A DNA stretch of 64,000 nt from a phage. Every line of letters begins with the position of its first letter. Within the stretch, counting starts at the first letter, position 1. Position numbers and translations under genes: made by a program. Of the stretch, positions 7,087 to 63,172 are shown piece by piece. The stretch is taken from sequence record PZ674596.1; one strand, 5' to 3'. Under the pieces are notes generated by a model. That model ran no database searches, was not told the origin of the DNA, and worked only from the letters and a program-made list of their open reading frames with translations.

Positions 7087-8031
7087 GTGAATTATCTCTT
7101 CGTAGATGGCAATAGCCTGGGTTATTACCACCAACAATCTGACAAATTGCACAACGGCGAAATGGAAGTACAGGCTGCTTTCGGCTTTGTTAAGAACGTC
7201 CGTCGTTATGCCTCCATCCTCCATGCCCGACCTATGATTCTTTGGGATGGATTTAGTGACAAGCGCCGCGACTTTTACCCGGACTACAAAGCAAATCGCG
7301 ACGACGATCCTGATATGAAAAAGATGAAGGAAGGCTTTGCTATCCAGAAGCCATACATCCTCAAAATGATGACCGCGCTTGGAGTTACCCAACTCATTGC
7401 AAAAGATGCAGAAGCGGATGATCTGGCCGGGCTGCTGGTAGCCAGCATTGCACCGCAGCCAATCGTTGAACACATCTATCTGTTAACAGGCGATAGCGAC
7501 TGGCTTCAGTTAGTTCGCGAAAACGTAAGCTGGGTAAGCCTGCGCGAAGACGCCAAAAACAAGCAGGTTAATTTTGAGCAATTTGCGGAACTGACAGGAT
7601 TCGCTACTCCTCGCGCATTTTTGGAAGCAAAAGCATTACAAGGCGATAACTCGGACAACATTAGCGGTGTTGGTGGCATTGGTGCTGGCGGTGCGAAAGA
7701 GCTGCTGCATGAATGGGGAAGTGTCGCAACGATGGTACGCGGCATCAACGACGGCTCAATCGTGGTTGACAAAGGACGCCATAAGACCGCCTTCAACAAA
7801 CTAGCGAAGAATGCCTTCAACGAGAAAACAGGCTGTCGAATGCTCGAAGCGTTCAAGAGAAACATCACGCTAATGAACCTGATTGAGACGAAGTTTCCGC
7901 CTACCGAAATCGAAACAATCAAAGGCAATCGTGACGTGAAAGCATTCGAGCAACTGTGCTACGAGCTGAATTTCCGTTCGTTCCTTGAAGACCTTGAAGT
8001 GTTTGTTCTTCCATTCGAAAGGTATTGCTAA
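7087..8031 (+). CDS. 5'-3' exonuclease / flap endonuclease (T4 RNase H / T5 D15-like)
   Basis: FVDGNSLGYY N-terminal nuclease motif and H3TH motif GDNSDNISGVGGIGAGGAKELL; start placed at in-frame GTG 7087 after GGAAGGA, because table start 7036 lies inside the upstream terminator hairpin. Confidence 0.8.
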   Translation: MNYLFVDGNSLGYYHQQSDKLHNGEMEVQAAFGFVKNVRRYASILHARPMILWDGFSDKRRDFYPDYKANRDDDPDMKKMKEGFAIQKPYILKMMTALGVTQLIAKDAEADDLAGLLVASIAPQPIVEHIYLLTGDSDWLQLVRENVSWVSLREDAKNKQVNFEQFAELTGFATPRAFLEAKALQGDNSDNISGVGGIGAGGAKELLHEWGSVATMVRGINDGSIVVDKGRHKTAFNKLAKNAFNEKTGCRMLEAFKRNITLMNLIETKFPPTEIETIKGNRDVKAFEQLCYELNFRSFLEDLEVFVLPFERYC

Positions 8032-8297
8032 TGCTTAAATCGATTATCAATGGCGCTACAACCACCCCTGCCCAACTGGCAAAAGAAATTGTCTTTTATC
8101 ACGGTGAGTACGCTGTCATCGCACTGCCGTCAATTCTAGGCGCTGCCGGAATGAAAGCGACAGATCGCGAGTTTGGATTAGTCAGCGAGCAGGTCGTAAA
8201 AATCCTCGCTCGTGTATCCAGACTCCTTAACCACGATGCGATTGTATTCGACGAATCCGCCGCTTTAAAACGAATCAACGAAACAAAAGGAGCCTGA
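8031..8297 (+). CDS. hypothetical protein
   Basis: 88 aa from ATG overlapping upstream stop (TAATG); table ORF starts 6 nt earlier at TTG. Confidence 0.4.
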   Translation: MLKSIINGATTTPAQLAKEIVFYHGEYAVIALPSILGAAGMKATDREFGLVSEQVVKILARVSRLLNHDAIVFDESAALKRINETKGA

Positions 8298-8299
8298 TC

Positions 8300-9373
8300 A
8301 TGGCAAAAGGAAAATCCGCACTGGCACTTGCTCTGAAAAAGAAAATCGGTAGCAACGACGAAATTCAGAAAGTAACTCATTGGATTGATACAGGCTTTCC
8401 ACCGTTAAACAAAGCTATTTCTGGTCGTTACGATGGCGGCTTCCCATGTGGTCGTATCGTCGAAGTATTCGGTCCTCCAAGTGCAGGGAAAACGTTCCTT
8501 GCAACAGCAGCGATGATCTCCGCTCAAAAACAAGATGGTCTGGCGGTATTCCTCGATCATGAAAACAGTTTTGACGTTGGCCTGGCTGTAGCCAATGGCC
8601 TGAACGCAGATGAGGATGACGGTCAGTGGGTATACAAGCAGCCTGATACCTTCGAAGACTCTGTAGAGTTGATCGGCACAATTCTTAAATTGGTACGTGA
8701 TGAAGAGCTTATTCCTGAATCAGCACCTATCTGTATCGTGGCTGACTCACTTGCGTCTATGGTTCCGAACTCCAAAGCCGAGAAGTTCGAAAAGATGGCT
8801 GAAGGCACTGCCAAAGACAAAGATCAGCTAAACATGAACGACAATACGGCACTGGCTCGTGCGACAAGTGCGAACTTCCCTACTCTGGCTTTGTGGGCAC
8901 GCAAATACAACGCCTGCATCATCTTCTTGAATCAGGTTCGCACAAAAATCGGTGTAATGTTTGGCGACCCTACTACGTCGCCAGGTGGAGATTCACCGAA
9001 GTTCTACGCTTCTGTACGTATCCGTCTTGGTGCATCGGTGATGAAGGATGGTAAAGAGAAGATCGGCCAGGACGTAGGCGCAGAATGCATCAAAAACAAA
9101 GTTGCACCACCGTATGGCAAATGCACCTGGAAATTCTACTTCGATCCTACTCGTGGCCTCGACGTTATCGAATCGCTCGTCGAGTACATGCTGGAAGAAG
9201 GATACCTGCCAAAGAACGCCAGCGGGCGAGTTGAAATTGGTGACAAGAAATACACCAAATCGCAGATCGTCGAGATGTATCGGGAGAAGCCACTGGCTGA
9301 AATCATTGCGGCTTTGCAGGCAATCGACGACCGAAGAGCAAAAGACAACCCCACCGAGTCAGTAGAAGAGTAA
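8300..9373 (+). CDS. RecA-family recombinase (UvsX/RecA-like)
   Basis: 357 aa; RecA-type Walker A VEVFGPPSAGKTFLA; RBS AAAGGAG. Confidence 0.75.
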   Translation: MAKGKSALALALKKKIGSNDEIQKVTHWIDTGFPPLNKAISGRYDGGFPCGRIVEVFGPPSAGKTFLATAAMISAQKQDGLAVFLDHENSFDVGLAVANGLNADEDDGQWVYKQPDTFEDSVELIGTILKLVRDEELIPESAPICIVADSLASMVPNSKAEKFEKMAEGTAKDKDQLNMNDNTALARATSANFPTLALWARKYNACIIFLNQVRTKIGVMFGDPTTSPGGDSPKFYASVRIRLGASVMKDGKEKIGQDVGAECIKNKVAPPYGKCTWKFYFDPTRGLDVIESLVEYMLEEGYLPKNASGRVEIGDKKYTKSQIVEMYREKPLAEIIAALQAIDDRRAKDNPTESVEE

Positions 9374-9377
9374 ACAC

Positions 9378-9402
9378 AAGGCGTCCACAGGACGCCTTTT
9401 TT
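9378..9402 (+). terminator. Rho-independent terminator
   Basis: AAGGCGTCC-aca-GGACGCCTT followed by TTTT. Confidence 0.7.
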
Positions 9403-9465
9403 ATCTCTTGAAAATATATAAGTACTTACTTATTATTTTCGCATAACAACCACATAGGAAAACAC

Positions 9466-50473: not shown

Positions 50474-50537
50474 GTATTGTAAGTACATACTTACGATCAT
50501 AGAATATAAAAATAATCAAAACACTACGGAGAGTGAA

Positions 50538-54622: not shown

Positions 54623-55144
54623 TCAAAACGGTAAAATTCGTTCAACCCAATCGAAGAATACAAGTGTTTTTCTGCCGTCTTCTAACTTAAGAGTGACCTG
54701 GCAAGCATCAACGCCTCTTGATATCCCTTCTATTTCACGACCGTCTGCCATGTAGACCCTTATAGATTTGCCGTTTTGGTAAGCCTGACGACATATCTTA
54801 AAAAAGTCACGACGTGATGGCTGATTGTCAACATAGTCTGGATGTATTGTTAGCCTACCTTTGAACTCGCGAGCAATGCCATCGATTACACCTGATTCAA
54901 TTGTGCTAATGCGCTCAAGTGGGAGTCTTATACGATTTTCTTTATCATATGGAAGCGGGCATAAATCTAGCTTATTGCGGGAAGGCATTGTCCCCTGAAC
55001 GTACATGCAAAACACCTGACCGTCTTCAAGCGTGACTCTTACAGGAATGTTGTTTTTCCGCCAGAACATAAGTATGTTTTCAGCATGTTCGTAGTCTCGT
55101 GGCCAGACTTCTGCTGGAATGCCGTAGGTGATGTCTTTAACCAT
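54623..55144 (-). CDS. hypothetical protein with internal tandem repeat of ~80-aa domain (weak Sm/Hfq-like signature)
   Basis: 173 aa; halves share R..N.IPVRVTLEDGQV / GKSIRVYMADGREIEG pattern; ends 3 nt before the secreted-protein gene. Confidence 0.45.
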   Translation of the reverse strand: MVKDITYGIPAEVWPRDYEHAENILMFWRKNNIPVRVTLEDGQVFCMYVQGTMPSRNKLDLCPLPYDKENRIRLPLERISTIESGVIDGIAREFKGRLTIHPDYVDNQPSRRDFFKICRQAYQNGKSIRVYMADGREIEGISRGVDACQVTLKLEDGRKTLVFFDWVERILPF

Positions 55145-56169: not shown

Positions 56170-57303
56170 TTAATTGGCGTTTTCGTTCTTCTCTTTTTTG
56201 CTAATTTCATCACATGCAAGGTTCATTATGTCTATGTTTTCTTGTTTTTGAAGGTTGCCGACAATTTTTTGGCGCAATTCATAAAATCGCTCGCGTGGTA
56301 TAGCTTCCTTGTTGCCGCTGATGTGAAGTATTGCGTGACAGCTAGGGCAGACGGCAATCAGATCTGTTTTTGGGTTCACGCTTCGTGCACCTTCGCCTTG
56401 TGAAAGTGGGATGATGTGGTGAGCGTGTAGCAGCGTTTTCGTTTCTTTACCGTCAATTTCCTTGCCGTATATTTCCGACATCGTTCTGCAACATAGTTGA
56501 CACCTGTAGTCTGCGTTTGCCAGAACGTCATTCCTTAACCCGGATACGCGGCTACGATGTTGCGACTGGATTAATCTTGTTTCGCCCTCTATATATTCCT
56601 CAACTTCTTCTTTCTGGAGGTCGTAGCTGATTTCTTCTTGAGTTACGTTGTCTTCTGCTTTGGCTGAGACTGCATGAATCTCTTTCTTATTCAACGAGAA
56701 AGGTGATTTGAGAGCATCAGCACTGTTTTGCCCTCTTGAATGTTGTGATTTTAGAGCAAGATTGTAAATCTCTTTTAATTTGACATTTTTTTTGTTTGTT
56801 CTAAAGAACTTTCTGCTCTCTACTTGTGAGATAATCCCTGATTCTATATATTGAATTAACACACGAAGAAAATGTTCTATAGATTTTTTACTTTTGAATG
56901 AAAAGGAATAGCCGACTTTCTTTCTCAACTCGTTTTCGCTAAAGAACTCTTTCAGATTTTCGTCGTCAGTCAGGTTAATGGTTGCACCTGCCCAGGTTGA
57001 AGCTTCTACAATTTCAGGAATAACCTCTTGGTCGCCAAGCTGATTGTTTATTTCATCCAGCATTTTAAAGACTGTCAATATTGGATACGGATTCGTCACC
57101 AGACCGTTAGAGGATTTCGTTCTAGGCCCATTCTTTTTTATAATGATGGGGTGCTGTTGAGAAGTTTTCTTTAATTGTAAATAATAAAGGTTTATATTAT
57201 TATTCGTTGATATACCTGCCGGTTTTATCAAGGATAATTTTTCATCACATGCAATATCATCTATTATATTTCTTAGGTCACACGTTTTTATAAATTGACG
57301 CAT
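56170..57303 (-). CDS. HNH-nuclease-domain protein with unknown N-terminal domain
   Basis: 377 aa; C-terminal CQLCC...HAHHIIPLS...CPSCH HNH signature; low GC; RBS GGAGGA lies in a CCTCCGAA/TTCGGAGG hairpin. Confidence 0.6.
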   Translation of the reverse strand: MRQFIKTCDLRNIIDDIACDEKLSLIKPAGISTNNNINLYYLQLKKTSQQHPIIIKKNGPRTKSSNGLVTNPYPILTVFKMLDEINNQLGDQEVIPEIVEASTWAGATINLTDDENLKEFFSENELRKKVGYSFSFKSKKSIEHFLRVLIQYIESGIISQVESRKFFRTNKKNVKLKEIYNLALKSQHSRGQNSADALKSPFSLNKKEIHAVSAKAEDNVTQEEISYDLQKEEVEEYIEGETRLIQSQHRSRVSGLRNDVLANADYRCQLCCRTMSEIYGKEIDGKETKTLLHAHHIIPLSQGEGARSVNPKTDLIAVCPSCHAILHISGNKEAIPRERFYELRQKIVGNLQKQENIDIMNLACDEISKKEKNENAN

Positions 57304-57443: not shown

Positions 57444-58010
57444 TTAATCATTCAATAATCTATATTTTCTTTTGATTAAATCTTCACCTTTTTTGGTGAA
57501 CACAAAACCAAATTGCGATTTTTTGTTTAGACGAAGGACTCTGTTATCCAACGCATCGGTTGATGGAATCAATGTTTGATCATCTATCCAATTAAGTAGC
57601 GTAAGAAAGTTCAGCAGCCTCAACGTTGTTGTGCGAAGCTCTTTCGATATATTTTCAATGCTGGCAATTCGTCTTTCTTTTTTCTCAGGTGGTACAGATA
57701 ATTGTTCTTGAGGTTTCGTGGATAGATAATCAATTTCGTTTGCTGCATCGAATGATATGTGTGGCGTAATTTTGCTAAAAAAGCCTTTCGCTGACTCACT
57801 TGATAATAAACCAGACCTATTCATATCGTTTGTTATTCTGTACAGGAGTGGACTGTGTTTCATTTCAGGATAACGTTGATAAAAGTTAAGCAATTCAAAA
57901 GCAGCATTAGCGCCAACAAGAAAATCAGAAGGATCGCTGACTTTCCAGAAAGAATGATTTTTCTTAGCGCCAGTGGTGTCAACAAATGATAATTCTTTTA
58001 ACCAACTCAT
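57444..58010 (-). CDS. hypothetical protein
   Basis: 188 aa from ATG 58010 with RBS AAGGAG; inverted repeat GATGTGCTC-N13-GAGCACATC overlaps the RBS. Confidence 0.45.
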   Translation of the reverse strand: MSWLKELSFVDTTGAKKNHSFWKVSDPSDFLVGANAAFELLNFYQRYPEMKHSPLLYRITNDMNRSGLLSSESAKGFFSKITPHISFDAANEIDYLSTKPQEQLSVPPEKKERRIASIENISKELRTTTLRLLNFLTLLNWIDDQTLIPSTDALDNRVLRLNKKSQFGFVFTKKGEDLIKRKYRLLND

Positions 58011-58075
58011 GATGTGCTCCTTTCTAACAAGTGAGCACATCATAGAATTAGTAGATAGGGGGTAAATATGAAATG

Positions 58076-58354
58076 TTACGGCAACCTGCTCAGTATTTCC
58101 TCTAAATCTTTTTTTGTCATATTGGAGTTTTCATAGATGCGCATGATTTTCTCACGCGTCTTAGCGGAAACCCCAACGGCAGATGTGACTTTGTCAAATT
58201 CAGCCATAGTCATCGTCTCCAGAATGGCATTGATAACTTCAGCCTTAGACATCTTGATTTTTTTCTCTTTGAGTTTTATTTGAAATTTTCCAAGTTTTTC
58301 ATTGGCCTTATCAGACAATGCCACTTGGCAATAAGTTGTTTTTTTTTCGCTCAT
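58076..58354 (-). CDS. small hypothetical protein
   Basis: 92 aa, Lys-rich; starts 2 nt after helicase stop. Confidence 0.4.
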   Translation of the reverse strand: MSEKKTTYCQVALSDKANEKLGKFQIKLKEKKIKMSKAEVINAILETMTMAEFDKVTSAVGVSAKTREKIMRIYENSNMTKKDLEEILSRLP

Positions 58355-58356
58355 AA

Positions 58357-59916
58357 CTAATCTCGTTTCAGAATTCCAAAATCGAATGCGCCATCAACAG
58401 GCAATACACCTTCCGCAAAGCCAGGTGTGGTGTCGATGATGTGTTTTCGCTCATAAGAGTGAGACAACAGGTATTTGTTGCTAGTGTCAATGAAATCAGT
58501 GATAAAACACACGTTTGCCTGATTCTTCTTGGCTCGTAAGCCACGACCGACACGCTGCCTCATTTCAACTTCTGCTTTCCCACCACCAGCCAGAATGACC
58601 GCACCAACGCTTGGCACATCAACACCGACATCCAGAATAGTCGAGCCTATTAAAACATCTATGTCGCCAGACGCTAAACTGTTCAGCTTTGCTTGCCTTG
58701 TCGACTGGTTCGATTCCCCATAAATGAAGTCAACTCTAAGGCCGGACTCTTTCATCATTTCCATCAGGATTTGCCCGTGGCGTTTAAGACGAACCAGAGT
58801 CATACAATTGAGAGAATGTTGCTTATAGAGCAATGCTTCGCGAACAATGGCCTCATTACGTCCCAAATTATACACGATCCCCAACTGATAAGCCTTTTGG
58901 TAGGCAGTGCTCATACCTACTCTAAAATTGAGGTATTTGTTGGCAAGTTCTGCCTTGATTCTGGCCTCGTCCGGCTTGTAGGCAACTTTATGATAAAGGA
59001 AGTATGGTTTTGCCAGAATGCCTCTATCAATCAGGTACTTTTCTGTGACTTTAATTTCAATTCGCCCGGCCACCGCCATCAGGCGCATGTTGGCTTCCGT
59101 CGAATCCTTCATGAACGGCGTGGCTGTAAGCGCCAGACGATAGTCTGCGTTCACACATAATCTGGCGATGTCATAGAAATTTGAGCCTGAAGACTCATGC
59201 GCCTCTTCCAGAATAAGAAGAGAGACACTTGAAAGGAAGCGTTTCACCAACTCCCGACGTTTGAGGTGGTAGCTTTTCTTATCTGGTGTTGCATCGCGTG
59301 GTGGTTCTTCGAGGAAACTTGCAAGAGTTTGAACTGTAGCGACGTTGATATGTCGTGATACCTGGAACTCACCCGAGCCAATGACTCCAACCTTTTGGTC
59401 CTTTAACCACGGTTCGCCATTTTCGGCGCGGTAGTCGATGGATCTCTGGAAGTTTTCGGCCATTTGAAACATCAGAACAGAGCGGGTTGTTAAAAATAAT
59501 GTCATTCGACCGATACGTGCAGCTGCTTTGCAGGCAACGTTAGATTTCCCACCACCAGTAGCGATCTGGGCAATCATCATTCCCTCGCGAACTAGTGTTT
59601 CCACAGCCTGATCCTGATATGCATAATCAGGATTGTATGGGAATGGGTTAACCGCCGGATTTGGCTTTCCAAGCGCCGGGGCTTTGTCTTTGCGGATATG
59701 AACACATTTGATGCCCGCCTTGTTCAAGTTCGCCGCTACAGGCTTGGCAAAGCCAGCAGGGAACGAGTTTTTACTCCAGTTGAACATCGTGCTTGTGCCC
59801 TTCCAGTCGCCAGTCTCGACTTCGTAGCTCAACATTTGCTGCACCAGTTGCTTTACCTTGTCATCTGCGCCAGAAATAAGCGCATTTACTGCGTTAGATA
59901 CAATCCGAACAGTCAT
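58357..59916 (-). CDS. SF2 helicase (UvsW-like, tentative)
   Basis: 519 aa; motif I ATGGGKS, motif II ILEEAHE, motif III TATP, motif VI QRVGRGLR; N-terminal region loosely resembles UvsW N-domain. Confidence 0.65.
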   Translation of the reverse strand: MTVRIVSNAVNALISGADDKVKQLVQQMLSYEVETGDWKGTSTMFNWSKNSFPAGFAKPVAANLNKAGIKCVHIRKDKAPALGKPNPAVNPFPYNPDYAYQDQAVETLVREGMMIAQIATGGGKSNVACKAAARIGRMTLFLTTRSVLMFQMAENFQRSIDYRAENGEPWLKDQKVGVIGSGEFQVSRHINVATVQTLASFLEEPPRDATPDKKSYHLKRRELVKRFLSSVSLLILEEAHESSGSNFYDIARLCVNADYRLALTATPFMKDSTEANMRLMAVAGRIEIKVTEKYLIDRGILAKPYFLYHKVAYKPDEARIKAELANKYLNFRVGMSTAYQKAYQLGIVYNLGRNEAIVREALLYKQHSLNCMTLVRLKRHGQILMEMMKESGLRVDFIYGESNQSTRQAKLNSLASGDIDVLIGSTILDVGVDVPSVGAVILAGGGKAEVEMRQRVGRGLRAKKNQANVCFITDFIDTSNKYLLSHSYERKHIIDTTPGFAEGVLPVDGAFDFGILKRD

Positions 59917-59998
59917 AAACCTCTTTCCTTAGTGCCTTTTGTATGTTATTTGGCTATTATAATAAGTAAGTGATTACTTAGTGGATTGTAGCAATAAA

Positions 59999-60679
59999 AT
60001 GGATGTAAAAATCACGATTTTGCAGGTTGATGTTGCCAACCTTCGCCCGAATACCTGGAACACCAATTCGGTTGGTGCGCAGAATTTTGAAAAACTGAAA
60101 GGTTCTATCGAAAAATTGGGCTTTTTTAAGCCAATTTTGGCTCGTGAACTTGAAGATGGATTTTTTGAAATCCTCGGCGGCGAACATCGCTGGCGTGCTG
60201 CTATTGAGCAAGGAATTTCAACGGTTCCGGTGCTTTCTGTGGGCAAAATTAGCGATGTCGTAGCTAAACAGATGTCACTGGTGGACAACGAGCGATACGG
60301 TGAAGACGACCAAATCGCATTGCAACGCTTCATTGAAGAAATTCAGTCAGAACTTGACTATCAACTGTCTGAAATCGCCCCGTATGACGACGAAATCTCG
60401 ATGGTTTTAGCAAAAGAGGCGGCAATCGACCTTGAAGCACTGGAGGCGTTGTCTCGTGGTAGTGATGAGCCTGTCGATACCGACAAACGAGAGAAAACCG
60501 AACGTGTGGGTGCGGAACATCAGACCATGCGCTTCAAAGTAACTTTCGATGCGTCAGATCGTGTTGCAGAAACCATAAAAAACATCATCAAAGAGCAGGC
60601 TATTAACACCGGTAATGAAATGGAGAACGCTGGTGAGGCTCTGGTGTGGCTGGTCGACTACTACAAGGAGCGTATGTAA
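59999..60679 (+). CDS. ParB N-terminal-domain (ParB/Srx-like) protein 1
   Basis: GGEHRWRAA ParB box-II-like motif; start uncertain (ATG 59999 or GTG 59981). Confidence 0.5.
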   Translation: MDVKITILQVDVANLRPNTWNTNSVGAQNFEKLKGSIEKLGFFKPILARELEDGFFEILGGEHRWRAAIEQGISTVPVLSVGKISDVVAKQMSLVDNERYGEDDQIALQRFIEEIQSELDYQLSEIAPYDDEISMVLAKEAAIDLEALEALSRGSDEPVDTDKREKTERVGAEHQTMRFKVTFDASDRVAETIKNIIKEQAINTGNEMENAGEALVWLVDYYKERM

Positions 60680-61347
60680 TGACCAAAAAGTTTGAAATCG
60701 TATATCGCGACCCGGCAGATCTTATTCCCTATGAGATGAATGCCAAAAAGCATGATGAACAGCAGATCCGAGATCTGGCCGCAGCCATTAAAAAGCGCGG
60801 ATTTGACCAGCCAATTACGGTCGATAAGAACGACGTAATTATTACTGGCCACGGCCGCCGTGAGGCTGCAATTTTTGCTGGACTTGAGCGCGTACCGGTT
60901 ATTGTTCGCGATGATCTCAGTGATGACGAGGTTCGTGCGAAGCGCCTTGAAGATAACCGACTTGCCAGCATTGATTACGATGCAATTAAGCTACAGAAAG
61001 AGCTTGAGTCGCTTGTTCTGGACGATATCGAGGTTTTCGGCTTTGAAGAGCGTGAGTTGAATGTTCTCGTTGGCAGTATGACAGAAGAAATGGACACCGA
61101 TTCGCTAGTTATCGATCTTGGCGAAGAAACTAAACGACAGAAGGATGAACACACCGAGATCAGTCGTGAAGTTGCAGCGGAAGAAGTACGTGTTGTCGAC
61201 GTATTGGGCTTTAAAACGCTCCCTGCTGGCTCTGCCATTGTTGTTGGTGATTTGCTTGCCCACATGGAAGAAATGACGGGAGAAAGCGGGGTAGACGCAT
61301 TTGTGGCATATGCGGAGAAGATCTCTTCCGGGGAGATGGCTGCATGA
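60679..61347 (+). CDS. ParB N-terminal-domain (ParB/Srx-like) protein 2
   Basis: 222 aa from ATG overlapping upstream stop; ITGHGRREAA motif; acidic C-terminal half. Confidence 0.5.
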   Translation: MTKKFEIVYRDPADLIPYEMNAKKHDEQQIRDLAAAIKKRGFDQPITVDKNDVIITGHGRREAAIFAGLERVPVIVRDDLSDDEVRAKRLEDNRLASIDYDAIKLQKELESLVLDDIEVFGFEERELNVLVGSMTEEMDTDSLVIDLGEETKRQKDEHTEISREVAAEEVRVVDVLGFKTLPAGSAIVVGDLLAHMEEMTGESGVDAFVAYAEKISSGEMAA

Positions 61348-62009
61348 GCAAATACATCATCAACGTATCGTTTCAGACACGCGTAAATAAAACCACGCGC
61401 ACGTTGGAAATCGCTGAGTCGTTCGGGCTTGGCCTGGACGAAAAAGAGTGGACGCTTTACGACAATCTGGAGCTGGAAGTGAAGCAGGGCGATGTGGTGT
61501 ACATCACCGGCCAATCCGGTTCTGGCAAATCCGTTGTGCTGCGCGAGTTGCAACGCCAGATGAAGGATGAAGGGCTTTCTGTAGCCTCCATCGATGATTT
61601 TACCTTCGATAATGAGGTTAACGTCATCGATCAGTTGGGCAAAACGACCAGTGATGCGCTTGGGTTGTTATCTATGGCTGGTCTGAACGATGCATATCTG
61701 TTTGTTCGCAAGCCTTCTGAAATGTCAGACGGCCAGAAATATCGTCTCAAGATTGCCAAACTGATTGAGTCAGGCGCTAAAGTGTGGGCTGCTGACGAGT
61801 TCGGCGCTGTTCTCGACCGTGTAACCGCTCAGGTTGTGGCGTCTAACCTCCAGCGTGCCGCTCGAAAGGTTGGTGCGACGGTAATGGTGGCGACGACTCA
61901 CGAAGACCTGAAGAACGCGCTGCGCCCGGATATGCAGATCACCAAGCACTACAAAGAACGCGTGAAGGTGGAATATCACAATGGTAGTCACGATGAGGTC
62001 CATTCATGA
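61344..62009 (+). CDS. soluble ABC-type ATPase
   Basis: 221 aa; Walker A GQSGSGKS, signature-like SDGQKYRL, Walker B VWAADEF, H-loop TTHED; no membrane domain. Confidence 0.55.
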   Translation: MSKYIINVSFQTRVNKTTRTLEIAESFGLGLDEKEWTLYDNLELEVKQGDVVYITGQSGSGKSVVLRELQRQMKDEGLSVASIDDFTFDNEVNVIDQLGKTTSDALGLLSMAGLNDAYLFVRKPSEMSDGQKYRLKIAKLIESGAKVWAADEFGAVLDRVTAQVVASNLQRAARKVGATVMVATTHEDLKNALRPDMQITKHYKERVKVEYHNGSHDEVHS

Positions 62010-62896
62010 CGGACATCATCATTAAACGCTACCGCCCTGAAGAGTTTCCGCGTCATCTGGACTTTCTGGAGCGAATGACTGTTACAAAGGGAACTGTAGA
62101 GGACTGGCACGCTCTTAAGTCGCTTCACTACAAAACAGACGGCAAACCTTTCGCGCCAACTTACTATCGCTGCGAACTTGATGACCGTCTGGTGGGCGTC
62201 GTGGTTATGGCTTACCCGAAACTACTGTTGGCACCTCGCCACCGCATGTTTCCTAAGTTGAAACCAACCACTAATACCACCGTGGCTAACCAGTACTGGG
62301 GTCGGTACGTGAATAACAACTTTGCGGTGATCAGTCGCTCAGTTGTGGATACTCAGTATCGTGGCGTAGGCGTCTCTTATCGAATGATTAACCTGGTTAG
62401 CAGGATGCATGACCGGCCAATCATTGAGATCCAGTCCTCGATGAGCAAATACAATCCCTTCGCCATGAAAGCAGGGTTTAAGTTCATCCGCCCTGAGCGA
62501 CCGAAGAGCTATGAAAGTGCACTGCGTGTATTCCAGCGCCATTTCCGTTCTGACCCGGGTAATAACGAGGCGATCGTCAAAGAGTTGTTCGCAATGAGCG
62601 AGTCTCGTCGTCGCCGTGCACTGCGTGATCTGGTGGCGGACTACCACAAGAACAGTTCCCTGGCAAAAGCTGGGCGGAATCGTGGCACGACGATTCAGGA
62701 CATTGCCGACAGTCTGGTGGACGAGGCCAGCATTGTGAAGCTGCTCAAGGACATTCACAACCTGAGCTTTACGTCTCCGTTGTATGGTGTGTACCGAAAC
62801 CCTGACTTTGGCCGTCGACTGCCTGACACGCTGCCACTGCTGGCATTCGACAAACAACCTTTGGATAAACCGTTAGAAATTGCTTTACCGGCATAA
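62006..62896 (+). CDS. hypothetical protein (possible GNAT-like fold)
   Basis: 296 aa; RSVVDTQYRGVGVSYRMINLV resembles acetyl-CoA-binding motif; overlaps ATPase stop. Confidence 0.4.
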   Translation: MTDIIIKRYRPEEFPRHLDFLERMTVTKGTVEDWHALKSLHYKTDGKPFAPTYYRCELDDRLVGVVVMAYPKLLLAPRHRMFPKLKPTTNTTVANQYWGRYVNNNFAVISRSVVDTQYRGVGVSYRMINLVSRMHDRPIIEIQSSMSKYNPFAMKAGFKFIRPERPKSYESALRVFQRHFRSDPGNNEAIVKELFAMSESRRRRALRDLVADYHKNSSLAKAGRNRGTTIQDIADSLVDEASIVKLLKDIHNLSFTSPLYGVYRNPDFGRRLPDTLPLLAFDKQPLDKPLEIALPA

Positions 62897-62905
62897 GGAT
62901 TTGCC

Positions 62906-63172
62906 ATGACGTTAACCGACAAACAAAAGGACATCATCAAAACGCTCAATCTCGGTTATGAGCGAGGTCATCTACTTGATCTGGACGAATTGCTTGAAGT
63001 TTTGCCGTACAAGACAACAAAGCAAAGTATCCAGTTCTCAATTCGCGCTCTGATAAAAAAGGGGCTGGTGGAGAAAGGGCATACGCGCCAACGCAGTGAC
63101 AATCGCTATCACCGCCGGACTCTTGGGTTAACCACTTTAGGTCGAGCCAAAGCGAAGTTACTGGTGATGTAA
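62906..63172 (+). CDS. small basic protein, possible winged-helix DNA-binding
   Basis: 88 aa; helix-turn-wing-like segment; last gene of operon. Confidence 0.4.
   Translation: MTLTDKQKDIIKTLNLGYERGHLLDLDELLEVLPYKTTKQSIQFSIRALIKKGLVEKGHTRQRSDNRYHRRTLGLTTLGRAKAKLLVM

Follow-up and report, generated by a model that had tools for sequence, protein, structure and literature searches.

A complete UvsW-family helicase gene and a distinct small gene, encoding a possible DNA-binding partner, in an SSU5-like phage-plasmid

A helicase gene and a small gene share one locus

We analysed a 64,000-nucleotide stretch of phage DNA (record PZ674596.1), referred to here as the window. Judged by its sequence, the window comes from an SSU5-like E. 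coli phage-plasmid. Across the whole of a 2.6-kb stretch, its DNA is 97.6-98.4% identical to that of phages PhiR41_1 and Cyrano and of plasmid p009_B. Approximately 70 E. coli plasmids are also about 98% identical over this stretch, and 233 plasmid records match part or all of it. As originally predicted, an SF2 helicase gene is followed, 2 nt later, by a 92-amino acid open reading frame (ORF); the helicase has 519 amino acids, and both are on the minus strand. The two genes, and the junction between them, are as follows:

58357..59916, minus strand: UvsW-family SF2 DNA helicase gene, complete (519 amino acids, ATG...TAG)
58355..58359, minus strand: junction, with the helicase TAG and a 2-nt spacer (TT) before the small-gene ATG; reads GAT-TAG-tt-ATG
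58076..58354, minus strand: small conserved gene, phrog_1466 (unknown function); 92 amino acids, ATG...TAA, basic product, pI 9.5

Gene order in this region is the same in SSU5, pMT1, and Klebsiella elements. The helicase and the 92-amino acid ORF are two distinct, ordinary genes that have been annotated before. In phage Cyrano, the helicase is named 'UvsW helicase'; RefSeq plasmids list it as a 'DEAD/DEAH box helicase'. A literature search on the helicase of SSU5 phage-plasmids found no paper.

The helicase is a complete member of the UvsW family

The larger protein had been described, from its sequence, as a UvsW-like SF2 helicase. Pfam, BLASTP, and hhalign all agree. Pfam matches above cutoffs were obtained for ResIII, DEAD, and Helicase_C, and the protein matches phrog_16 with an E-value of 2.8e-94. 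Three PHROGs (phrog_16, 9690, and 16259) are common to the helicase and T4 UvsW. The BLASTP E-value against T4 UvsW is 2e-16 and, in a PDB search, UvsW (2oca) was among the top matches. Using hhalign, the helicase family aligns with the T4-like UvsW family at 99.7% probability (E-value 7.2e-26, 447 columns, 24% identity). This alignment is collinear from residue 1 to the end; it spans residues 1-499 of the helicase and 1-484 of 503 in UvsW, and the helicase ends at the counterpart of the T4 UvsW stop. Since the homology runs end to end, no part of the helicase C-terminus is missing. We conclude, from these alignments, that the protein belongs to the UvsW family (A18/UvsW clade) and is complete. 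Its recognizable parts are:

59632..59916, minus strand: N-terminal domain (approximately residues 1-95), homologous to the UvsW N-terminal domain
59542..59562, minus strand: motif I (Walker A), ATGGGKS, residues 119-125, from the translation; aligned to UvsW PTSAGKS
59197..59211, minus strand: motif II (DExH type), LEEAH, residues 236-240, from the translation; aligned to UvsW DECH
58534..58557, minus strand: motif VI, QRVGRGLR, residues 454-461, from the translation; aligned to UvsW QTIGRVLR

In the N-terminal domain, the hhalign alignment begins with the first residue of each family and takes in the W-x-G and (F/L)P-x-G-(F/L) positions. The helicase N-terminus also has a weak collinear match to phrog_16259, which corresponds to T4 UvsW residues 1-278. 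Motif III reads TATP in the translation. Except for G459 of motif VI, motifs I, II, III, and VI are invariant across a six-lineage alignment. The C-terminus, TTPGFAEGVLPVDG-x-FDF-x-x-L, is kept, with the same end point in all lineages. The enzyme has a domain of DNA-binding type at its N-terminus, followed by a pair of RecA-like lobes, with motifs I, II, III, and VI all intact. Activities expected of such a protein are 3'-5' unwinding, branch migration, dissociation of R-loops and D-loops, and annealing. By homology, it would be expected to remodel branched DNA, through fork regression, D-loop/R-loop unwinding, and branch migration, during replication and recombination of the phage-plasmid. 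For D10 of phage T5, a UvsW-like SF2 helicase of a non-T4 phage, branch-migration and unwinding activity is demonstrated (PMC5180179), and activity of this kind is expected here. The description of D10 there mentions no small partner encoded downstream.

Archaeal XPB/Rad25 proteins (6P4F, 5TNU, and 2FWR) gave the best PDB E-values for the helicase motor core, ahead of UvsW: 6e-13 with the single sequence and 1.3e-16 with a profile. However, this match is confined to residues ~99-162 and 230-470, and the N-terminal domain and C-terminus fall outside. The helicase scores 50.9 bits against the NCBIfam repair_heli_XPB equivalog, where the cutoff is 610, and 22.4 against Pfam ERCC3_RAD25_C, where the cutoff is 27. 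We rejected membership of the XPB/Rad25 family, given scores below these cutoffs and an alignment with UvsW that is instead end to end.

The small gene is conserved and strictly linked to the helicase gene

The 92-amino acid protein matches phrog_1466 along its full length (E-value 1.2e-45), and tblastn detected the gene in 790 plasmid records and 12 phage records, with identities as low as 51%. In comparisons with SSU5 and Klebsiella relatives, pN is 0.26 and synonymous sites are saturated (pS 0.88-0.95). For the two shifted frames, pN/pS exceeds 1. We conclude that the small ORF is under purifying selection in its own frame and is not a chance ORF. An exhaustive HMMER search with the small-protein family returned stand-alone proteins of 40-119 amino acids and three repetitive, spurious matches. 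Across the family, pI ranges from 7.8 to 9.5, that is, from neutral to basic.

Going by the records found, the phrog_1466 protein appears restricted to phage-plasmids of Enterobacterales, always beside a UvsW-family helicase. Both Yersinia pestis pMT1 and Salmonella pHCM2-type elements fall within this range. All lineages examined have the small gene directly downstream of a helicase of ~520-525 amino acids, even where small-protein identity is 25-35%, and the helicase gene is divergent from a ParB-ParB-ABC cluster. The pair was found in 79 of 80 IMG/VR loci; the remaining locus is cut by a contig end. While genes downstream of the small gene vary between lineages, linkage with the helicase is strict. 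For the distant family members P0026, P0020, and P0039, single-protein scans found no viral contig.

At the junction, the last helicase codons (AGA GAT) create a purine-rich AGAGA sequence 7-11 nt upstream of the small-gene ATG. Relative to the helicase, the small ORF lies in the -1 frame, which is open for just 42 nt upstream of the ATG. The 2-nt junction also occurs in SSU5, pMT1, pJN2-26, one Klebsiella plasmid, and at least 66 of the 80 IMG/VR loci. Across lineages, the genes overlap by 1 or 4 nt, or are separated by 2, 3, 9, 10, 27, 30, or ~41-43 nt. The relative frame can be -1, +1 (at gaps of 10 or 43 nt), or in-frame with a stop (at a gap of 3 nt). The small gene is probably translated by coupling with the helicase. 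Note that one lineage has a terminator-like hairpin between the genes. Hence, expression of the pair is not always strictly coupled.

A possible ribbon-helix-helix core in the small protein

We examined the fold of the small protein using AF2 and hhalign. Two segments can be delineated:

58214..58342, minus strand: putative ribbon-helix-helix (RHH)-like core, residues 5-47 (AF2 and hhalign)
58088..58207, minus strand: predicted C-terminal helical extension, residues 50-89 (AF2), with a conserved N-S-N-M-T-x-x-D-L motif

The AF2 model was built from a 32-sequence alignment and has a pLDDT of 81; an earlier model, from 10 sequences, was unusable (pLDDT 50.7). In the core, an extended TYCQVAL segment precedes a helix (residues 15-30), a turn (IKMS(K)), and a second helix (residues 37-47). 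Residues 10-50 have pLDDT values above 90. In the monomer, residues 1-14 are extended, without any beta-strand call. Beyond the core, helices at residues 50-76 and 81-89 are modelled with pLDDT values of 64-79, and N76, D83, and L84 are conserved columns of the C-terminal motif.

Aligned with a set of RHH proteins, the small protein gave an hhalign probability of 50% and an E-value of 1.6e-4, falling to 16% and 1.6e-3 without TTHA0139; note that one of the four templates was chosen from a weak match to the small-protein family itself. The observed score exceeds those of all 200 column shuffles. Known RHH proteins (CopG, 2CPG/1B01; the Rv0298 antitoxin; ParG-type) share a collinear order of hydrophobic-alternating strand, helix, S-K turn, and helix. 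The collinear stretches are ...KMSKAEVINAILE in the small protein and ...GLSKSAMISVALEN in CopG. E-values against RHH proteins range from 1.6e-4 to 6.5e-3, and both they and the small protein are small and basic. Conversely, helix A and the turn are ~5 residues longer in the small protein, which also has an extra C-terminal helical extension of ~45 residues.

Other searches were negative. No RHH family in Pfam matched at E-values up to 10, and Pfam and NCBIfam had no meaningful match to the whole protein, 17 family members, or 20 N-terminal cores. PDB sequence searches assigned neither fold nor family. With Foldseek, the best PDB E-value for the model was 3.2, the sole RHH-type entry was 3h87_C (E-value 6.2), and nothing in BFVD was significant. 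Given the lack of Pfam and Foldseek matches, support for an RHH fold is only moderate. We put the odds at roughly even that the N-terminal ~45 residues form an RHH-type dimeric DNA-binding core.

Roles proposed for the small protein

With a probability of about 60%, we favour two separate genes, for a UvsW-family helicase and a probably coupled small DNA-binding partner or regulator. The small protein would be made together with the helicase. It would occupy the position of T4 UvsW.1 but be unrelated to it. A functional or physical link between the small protein and the helicase is conceivable, with the balance tilting somewhat against it. The small protein evolves ~5 times faster than the helicase (pN of 0.26 and 0.05, respectively), and this suggests something other than a tightly fitting subunit. 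In summary of the linkage, phrog_1466 is strictly tied to a UvsW-family helicase and its product, as modelled, is probably DNA-binding.

Alternatively, the small protein might be autonomous: a transcriptional regulator of the RHH type, not physically linked to the helicase. Possible roles include autorepression at the divergent helicase/ParB promoter region and binding of the TAAGTA-N-TACTTA palindromes. The relevant features upstream of the helicase gene are:

59920..59930, minus strand: helicase Shine-Dalgarno region, AAGGAAAGAGG, from the sequence
59956..59961, minus strand: TATAAT, resembling a -10 hexamer, 40 nt ahead of the helicase ATG, with no good -35 hexamer
59963..59980, no strand: palindrome TAAGTAA-N4-TTACTTA, a candidate operator/promoter element in the divergent helicase/ParB intergenic region, 59917..59998

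A consensus promoter scan skipped the TATAAT sequence because a -35 hexamer is lacking. The palindrome is directly upstream of this box, an arrangement conserved in most lineages that would suit an autonomous regulator. It is an exact inverted repeat in seven of nine loci examined (the exceptions are SSU5 and L008) and, in 74 of 100 fetched loci, the exact pattern is ~50-60 nt upstream of the helicase start. Furthermore, the window has three copies, compared with 0.00 expected, and the other two, at 9419..9432 and 50480..50493, are also at promoter-like sites. The RHH-like core and basic charge of the small protein fit the same role. RHH repressors encoded second in an operon, such as ParG, are known. 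However, the predicted DNA-facing strand residues differ by lineage (Y-Q-A, H-Q-Q, S-H-K, and N-Q-V) while the half-sites, TAAGTA and TACTTA, are constant. This disfavours the small protein as the reader of the palindrome. In addition, the RHH assignment is itself only moderate, and a general regulator has no need for strict linkage to the helicase when downstream genes vary. We consider an autonomous regulator possible, if on the unlikely side.

Comparison with T4 UvsW.1

In phage T4, uvsW.1 is a separate 76-amino acid ORF directly after uvsW (PMC1524935). The gene is also annotated after uvsW in phages JSE, RB16, and 65. The original prediction, that the locus echoes T4 uvsW/uvsW.1, had the T4 layout right, and the position is alike: the small gene is immediately downstream of a uvsW-type helicase gene, on the same strand. 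The small proteins are not detectably homologous and, since the small ORF has no similarity to UvsW.1, the echo is merely positional. Nelson and Benkovic, in 2007, reportedly found UvsW.1 to bind UvsW and to dampen strand annealing by the helicase. Two unrelated phage groups have a UvsW-family helicase with a different small gene directly downstream in each, which makes two-component action worth testing. Neither this pattern nor the linkage of phrog_1466 would surprise a specialist. A bolder proposal is that, in SSU5-like phage-plasmids, a UvsW.1-type subunit was replaced by an unrelated basic RHH-type protein (non-orthologous displacement). The replacement would dock on the helicase and direct it to particular sequences or structures, an origin R-loop being one example. 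We regard this as a long shot. If true, UvsW-type helicases would generally be two-subunit enzymes with interchangeable small partners.

It is highly improbable that the small protein is a true, extremely diverged, UvsW.1 orthologue co-inherited with the helicase. Besides the shared position directly downstream of a UvsW-family helicase gene, the proteins are similar in size (76-90 and 92-119 amino acids), both are helical, and both gene pairs have short, variable junctions (in T4-like phages, three gaps, of 43, 9, and 9 nt, and one overlap, of 1 nt). Conversely, BLASTP with the small protein found no relevant match to T4 UvsW.1, hhalign gave 0.14% probability between the two families, and the PHROG assignments are separate (phrog_1466 for the small protein, phrog_1143 for UvsW.1). 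UvsW.1 (2JPN-type) chains were absent from PDB searches with the small protein, even at E-values up to 10, and Foldseek against the PDB, without a significant match, also argues against orthology. The charges are opposite: the small protein has a pI of 9.49 and a net charge of +6, compared with 4.24 and -12 for T4 UvsW.1, and has no UvsW.1-like acidic C-terminal tail. Such total loss of signal is unexpected for a co-inherited partner, because the helicases retain 24% identity. In one account, UvsW.1 is trihelical and is termed a 'potential DNA-binding partner' of UvsW (PMC7824862), while the small protein here is predicted to have an RHH-like core and a helical tail. The systems also differ in context; T4 belongs with the T4-like myoviruses and the element here is a siphovirus-type phage-plasmid.

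Frameshifting does not account for the junction

Programmed -1 ribosomal frameshifting close to the end of the helicase gene, yielding a fusion besides the two separate products, would suit the -1 frame of the small ORF and the 42-nt overlap window. However, an X-XXY-YYZ slippery heptamer is absent from the last 14 helicase codons, and the frame relation differs by lineage (+1 at 10 or 43 nt, in-frame at 3 nt). An A9 run is downstream of the small-gene ATG; of 80 related loci, just one has it. We consider programmed frameshifting extremely improbable.

The original prediction left open whether the small ORF is a separate protein or the helicase C-terminus, split by a frameshift. The former is right. 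A true helicase C-terminus, severed either through an error in sequencing or by a genuine frameshift mutation, is an idea prompted by the -1 frame offset and 2-nt gap, and has a precedent: as a result of such an error, uvsW and uvsW.1 are still one 587-amino acid fusion in the T4 GenBank record. Here, the helicase alignment reaches the natural UvsW stop, the small ORF shows no resemblance to the C-terminus of UvsW, and its frame stays open for no more than 42 nt ahead of the ATG. Hundreds of independently sequenced records share the same two-ORF layout, and distant lineages hold two ORFs with differing gaps and frames (-1, +1, and in-frame with a stop). Moreover, an exhaustive search of 1.84 billion protein representatives found no helicase fused to the small-protein domain. 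Because the two-ORF layout is kept across records, a split helicase is refuted for practical purposes. Neither an assembly error nor a frameshift is at issue at the junction, and annotation of the helicase as a complete enzyme of the UvsW family is justified.

We also rejected slippage at the A9 run (positions 58339-58347). The run lies within the small ORF, where it is a synonymous variant specific to the strain; it is absent from 79 of 80 related loci, and E. coli relatives have GAAAAGAAAACA.

Two genes at the helicase locus

The original prediction placed the two open reading frames (ORFs) correctly, at 2-nt spacing; the junction reads TAG-TT-ATG:

58357..59916, minus strand: helicase ORF, 519 aa, stop codon TAG
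58076..58354, minus strand: small ORF, 92 aa, with an ATG start 2 nt (TT) past the helicase TAG

Relative to the helicase, the small ORF is in the -1 frame, and it is open for just 42 nt upstream of its own ATG. The final helicase codons supply a purine stretch, AGAGA, 7-11 nt upstream of this ATG. We conclude that these are two genes. One encodes a UvsW-family helicase, and the other a small basic protein that is strictly linked to it.

The helicase matches Pfam models ResIII, DEAD, and Helicase_C, as well as phrog_16 (E 2.8e-94) and phrog_9690. T4 UvsW matches phrog_16, 9690, 16259, 14619, 2488, and 16694, so both helicase PHROGs are included. In BLASTP, the two proteins align at 21% identity (E 2e-16; residues 36-502 versus 45-490). 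Using hhalign, we compared an alignment of six phage-plasmid helicases with one of five T4-like UvsW proteins. The match (99.7% probability, E 7.2e-26, 447 columns) runs from residue 1 of both families to residue 499 of the helicase and 484 of 503 in UvsW. Motifs I (ATGGGKS), II (LEEAH), III (TATP), and VI (QRVGRGLR) are intact and conserved, and the C-terminal motif TTPGFAEGVLPVDG-x-FDF has the same end position in all lineages. Hence, these sequence comparisons uphold the predicted likeness to UvsW, and identify the helicase as a complete enzyme of that family, ending where UvsW ends. Note that, in PDB sequence searches, archaeal XPB was slightly ahead of UvsW, over the motor core only; against curated XPB models, the helicase scores far under the cutoffs.

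The small ORF had also been suggested to be the helicase C-terminus, split off by a frameshift, with alignment to UvsW as a check. That alignment is end to end, and the helicase stops where UvsW stops. Furthermore, the gene pair is found in 79 of 80 IMG/VR loci, the remaining one being cut by a contig end. The same 2-nt gap separates the genes in SSU5, pJN2-26, pMT1, and a Klebsiella plasmid. Small proteins at 25-35% identity are still encoded directly after a helicase of ~525 aa, but with different junctions.

Junctions between helicase and small gene in related loci
L008 (phage-plasmid): 43-nt gap, with a terminator-like hairpin inside
L010 (lineage): 1-nt overlap (TAATG)
L012 (lineage): 10-nt gap with GGAG
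L100 (lineage): ~41-nt gap
Other IMG/VR loci: gaps of 3, 9, 27, and 30 nt; 4-nt overlap

Since junction lengths differ, the relative frame of the two genes varies between lineages (-1, +1, or in-frame), which argues against a conserved programmed frameshift joining them. Searching 1.84 billion representative proteins with a profile HMM gave 26 matches to the small-protein family, and none is a fusion of a helicase to this domain. Three of the 26 are long repetitive proteins that lack helicase domains; the rest are stand-alone proteins, 40-119 aa in length. With the helicase complete, the pair retained, junctions variable, and fusions absent, we reject the small ORF as a cut-off helicase C-terminus.

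A run of nine A residues (58339-58347) occupies codons 3-6 of the small ORF (GAA AAA AAA ACA). We considered this as a split signal and discounted it; the run is inside the small ORF, is a strain-specific synonymous variant, and occurs in only 1 of 80 related loci. Escherichia coli relatives have GAAAAGAAAACA instead. The run is likely a hotspot for sequencing errors or slippage, and is not conserved.

In one Klebsiella phage-plasmid lineage (L008, 4958-5000, and two IMG/VR loci), the gap of ~27-43 nt contains a CCGG...CCGG hairpin, then T-rich sequence, and also a strong Shine-Dalgarno sequence (GGGGAGA). Together, these elements suggest that, in this lineage, the two genes are partly uncoupled in their expression.

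The small gene and its product

The small ORF is a real gene, bearing out the suggestion of a separate protein. Its match to phrog_1466 is full-length (E 1.2e-45) and, in tblastn searches, it was found in 790 plasmids and 12 phages, SSU5 among them. The plasmids are from Klebsiella, Escherichia, Enterobacter, Yersinia pestis (pMT1), Salmonella, Citrobacter, and Cronobacter. Compared with SSU5 and Klebsiella copies, pN is 0.26 and pS is 0.88-0.95, with synonymous sites saturated; in the other two frames, pN/pS exceeds 1. For the helicase, pN is ~0.05, and the small gene evolves around five times faster.

An AlphaFold2 model, from a 32-sequence alignment, has a pLDDT of 81.4, with residues 10-50 above 90. 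From the N-terminus, an extended segment is followed by a helix (15-30), a short turn, and helices at 37-47, 50-76, and 81-89. Residues 1-47 resemble a ribbon-helix-helix (RHH) motif, in that an alternating hydrophobic strand (x-C-Q-V-x-L) precedes helix A, and a turn ending S-K leads into helix B (AEVINAILE). In hhalign, this core matched CopG alone, the sequence of which was checked against 1B01 and 2CPG, with E 6.5e-3. Against a four-protein RHH set, the match had E 1.6e-4 and 50% probability, falling to 16% (E 1.6e-3) without the template picked from a weak match to the small-protein family. For both sets, none of 200 column shuffles reached the observed score and the reversed profile gave nothing. 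Pfam RHH models and Foldseek gave no match backing this fold. From the model and these alignments, we put the chance of an RHH fold at roughly even.

Comparison with T4 uvsW.1

The original prediction stated, rightly, that T4 uvsW is followed by uvsW.1. Resequencing identified two ORFs, and uvsW.1 is a separate 76-aa ORF, formerly taken for the UvsW C-terminus (PMC1524935). GenBank record AF158101.6 (T4 112677-114440; 7678-9441 in locus L003) still has uvsW as one 587-aa CDS, including the 76 UvsW.1 residues. Other T4-like phages have the genes annotated apart; the gap between them is 43, 9, or 9 nt, or they overlap by 1 nt.

The predicted echo of uvsW/uvsW.1 applies to location after the helicase, and not to homology. 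BLASTP of the small protein gave just a spurious match elsewhere in UvsW, and hhalign of the two small-protein families gave 0.14% probability. The PHROGs differ (phrog_1143 for UvsW.1), UvsW.1 was absent from PDB searches with the small protein at E up to 10, and Foldseek of the model against PDB returned nothing. Charge differs too: T4 UvsW.1, with pI 4.2 and a net charge of -12, is strongly acidic, whereas the small-protein family is basic to neutral (pI 7.8-9.5). We find no detectable relation to UvsW.1; the resemblance is one of position only. Such a non-homologous parallel is mildly interesting, and testable.

In Vibrio phage EniLVp02 (2150-3037 of locus L018), a 295-aa 'DNA helicase' has a UvsW.1-like N-terminus (compare phrog_14207), with 41% identity to T4 UvsW.1 residues 14-62. 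Hence, judging by this similarity, the UvsW.1 module also exists fused to another protein, besides stand-alone genes.

Possible expression, function, and regulation

The two genes would be co-transcribed, the putative promoter having a TATAAT box that precedes the helicase ATG by 40 nt. Translation of the small gene may be coupled to that of the helicase, using the AGAGA within the last helicase codons. Both UvsW and T5 D10 (PMC5180179) remodel branched DNA. By homology, the helicase probably does so in replication and recombination of the element. The small protein may act as a DNA-binding dimer, either helping or targeting the helicase or controlling transcription.

Upstream of the helicase, 74 of 100 fetched loci have a conserved palindrome, TAAGTA-N(2-6)-TACTTA, immediately adjoining the -10 box; seven of the nine lineage loci examined have an exact inverted repeat. 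The window has three copies, against 0.00 expected (100 shuffles):

9419-9432: palindrome copy
50480-50493: palindrome copy
59963-59980: palindrome copy

Each closely follows an intrinsic-terminator-like hairpin, and precedes a -10-like box by 1-6 nt and a Shine-Dalgarno sequence and ATG by ~35-60 nt. The palindrome is an attractive candidate for an operator, or promoter element, of a global phage-plasmid regulator. Strand residues of the small protein that would face DNA differ by lineage, whereas the half-sites are constant. Hence, the small protein is probably not the palindrome's reader.

Source element and neighbouring features

Escherichia phages PhiR41_1, CMS-2020a, and Cyrano share 97.6-98.4% identity with the 2.6-kb stretch. 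It is matched, in whole or in part, by 233 records of the plasmid collection, and coverage is 80% or more in 72, mostly non-mobilizable E. coli plasmids of ~110 kb. These phages and plasmids are SSU5-like phage-plasmids (PMC7969092). Records inspected annotate the ORFs separately, the helicase as 'UvsW helicase' (Cyrano) or 'DEAD/DEAH box helicase' (RefSeq) and the small ORF as 'hypothetical protein'. Public records thus already contain both genes, and the helicase family is known; the new annotations, strict linkage of the small gene to the helicase and a possible RHH fold, are modest.

Features neighbouring the helicase module
54623-55144, minus strand: full-length FljA-like 'repressor of phase-1 flagellin' (Pfam Flag1_repress, E 3e-82)
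56170-57303: HNH endonuclease gene, 377 aa, downstream of the helicase module (insertion ~56220-57239, ~1.0 kb)
58003-58052, minus strand: strong RNA hairpin (core stem 58011-58041), between the small gene and next ORF
59981-63172, plus strand: cluster divergent from the helicase, encoding two ParB_N-domain proteins, an ABC-type ATPase (221 aa), a 296-aa phrog_886 protein (no Pfam match), and an 88-aa phrog_900 protein

The HNH insertion is absent at the same position in Cyrano and plasmid p009_B, and, among 72,556 plasmid records, a single one has it (NZ_CP027369.1, 99.2% identity). By sequence, it looks like a rare mobile gene in a variable region. The RNA hairpin (-28.5 kcal/mol, z -6.0; 0 of 200 shuffles equally stable) pairs the Shine-Dalgarno AGGAG and ATG at 58010 of the next gene. 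This ATG, at residue 12, is likely the true start of the 199-aa ORF (phrog_13473). With no U-tract, the hairpin may serve in translational control or RNA stability, rather than in termination. The divergent cluster is not an obvious ParAB partition system. Every lineage examined has it beside the helicase, and some have an additional gene of ~185 aa. The FljA-like gene is conserved, close to the helicase module, in SSU5, pMT1, and Klebsiella elements.
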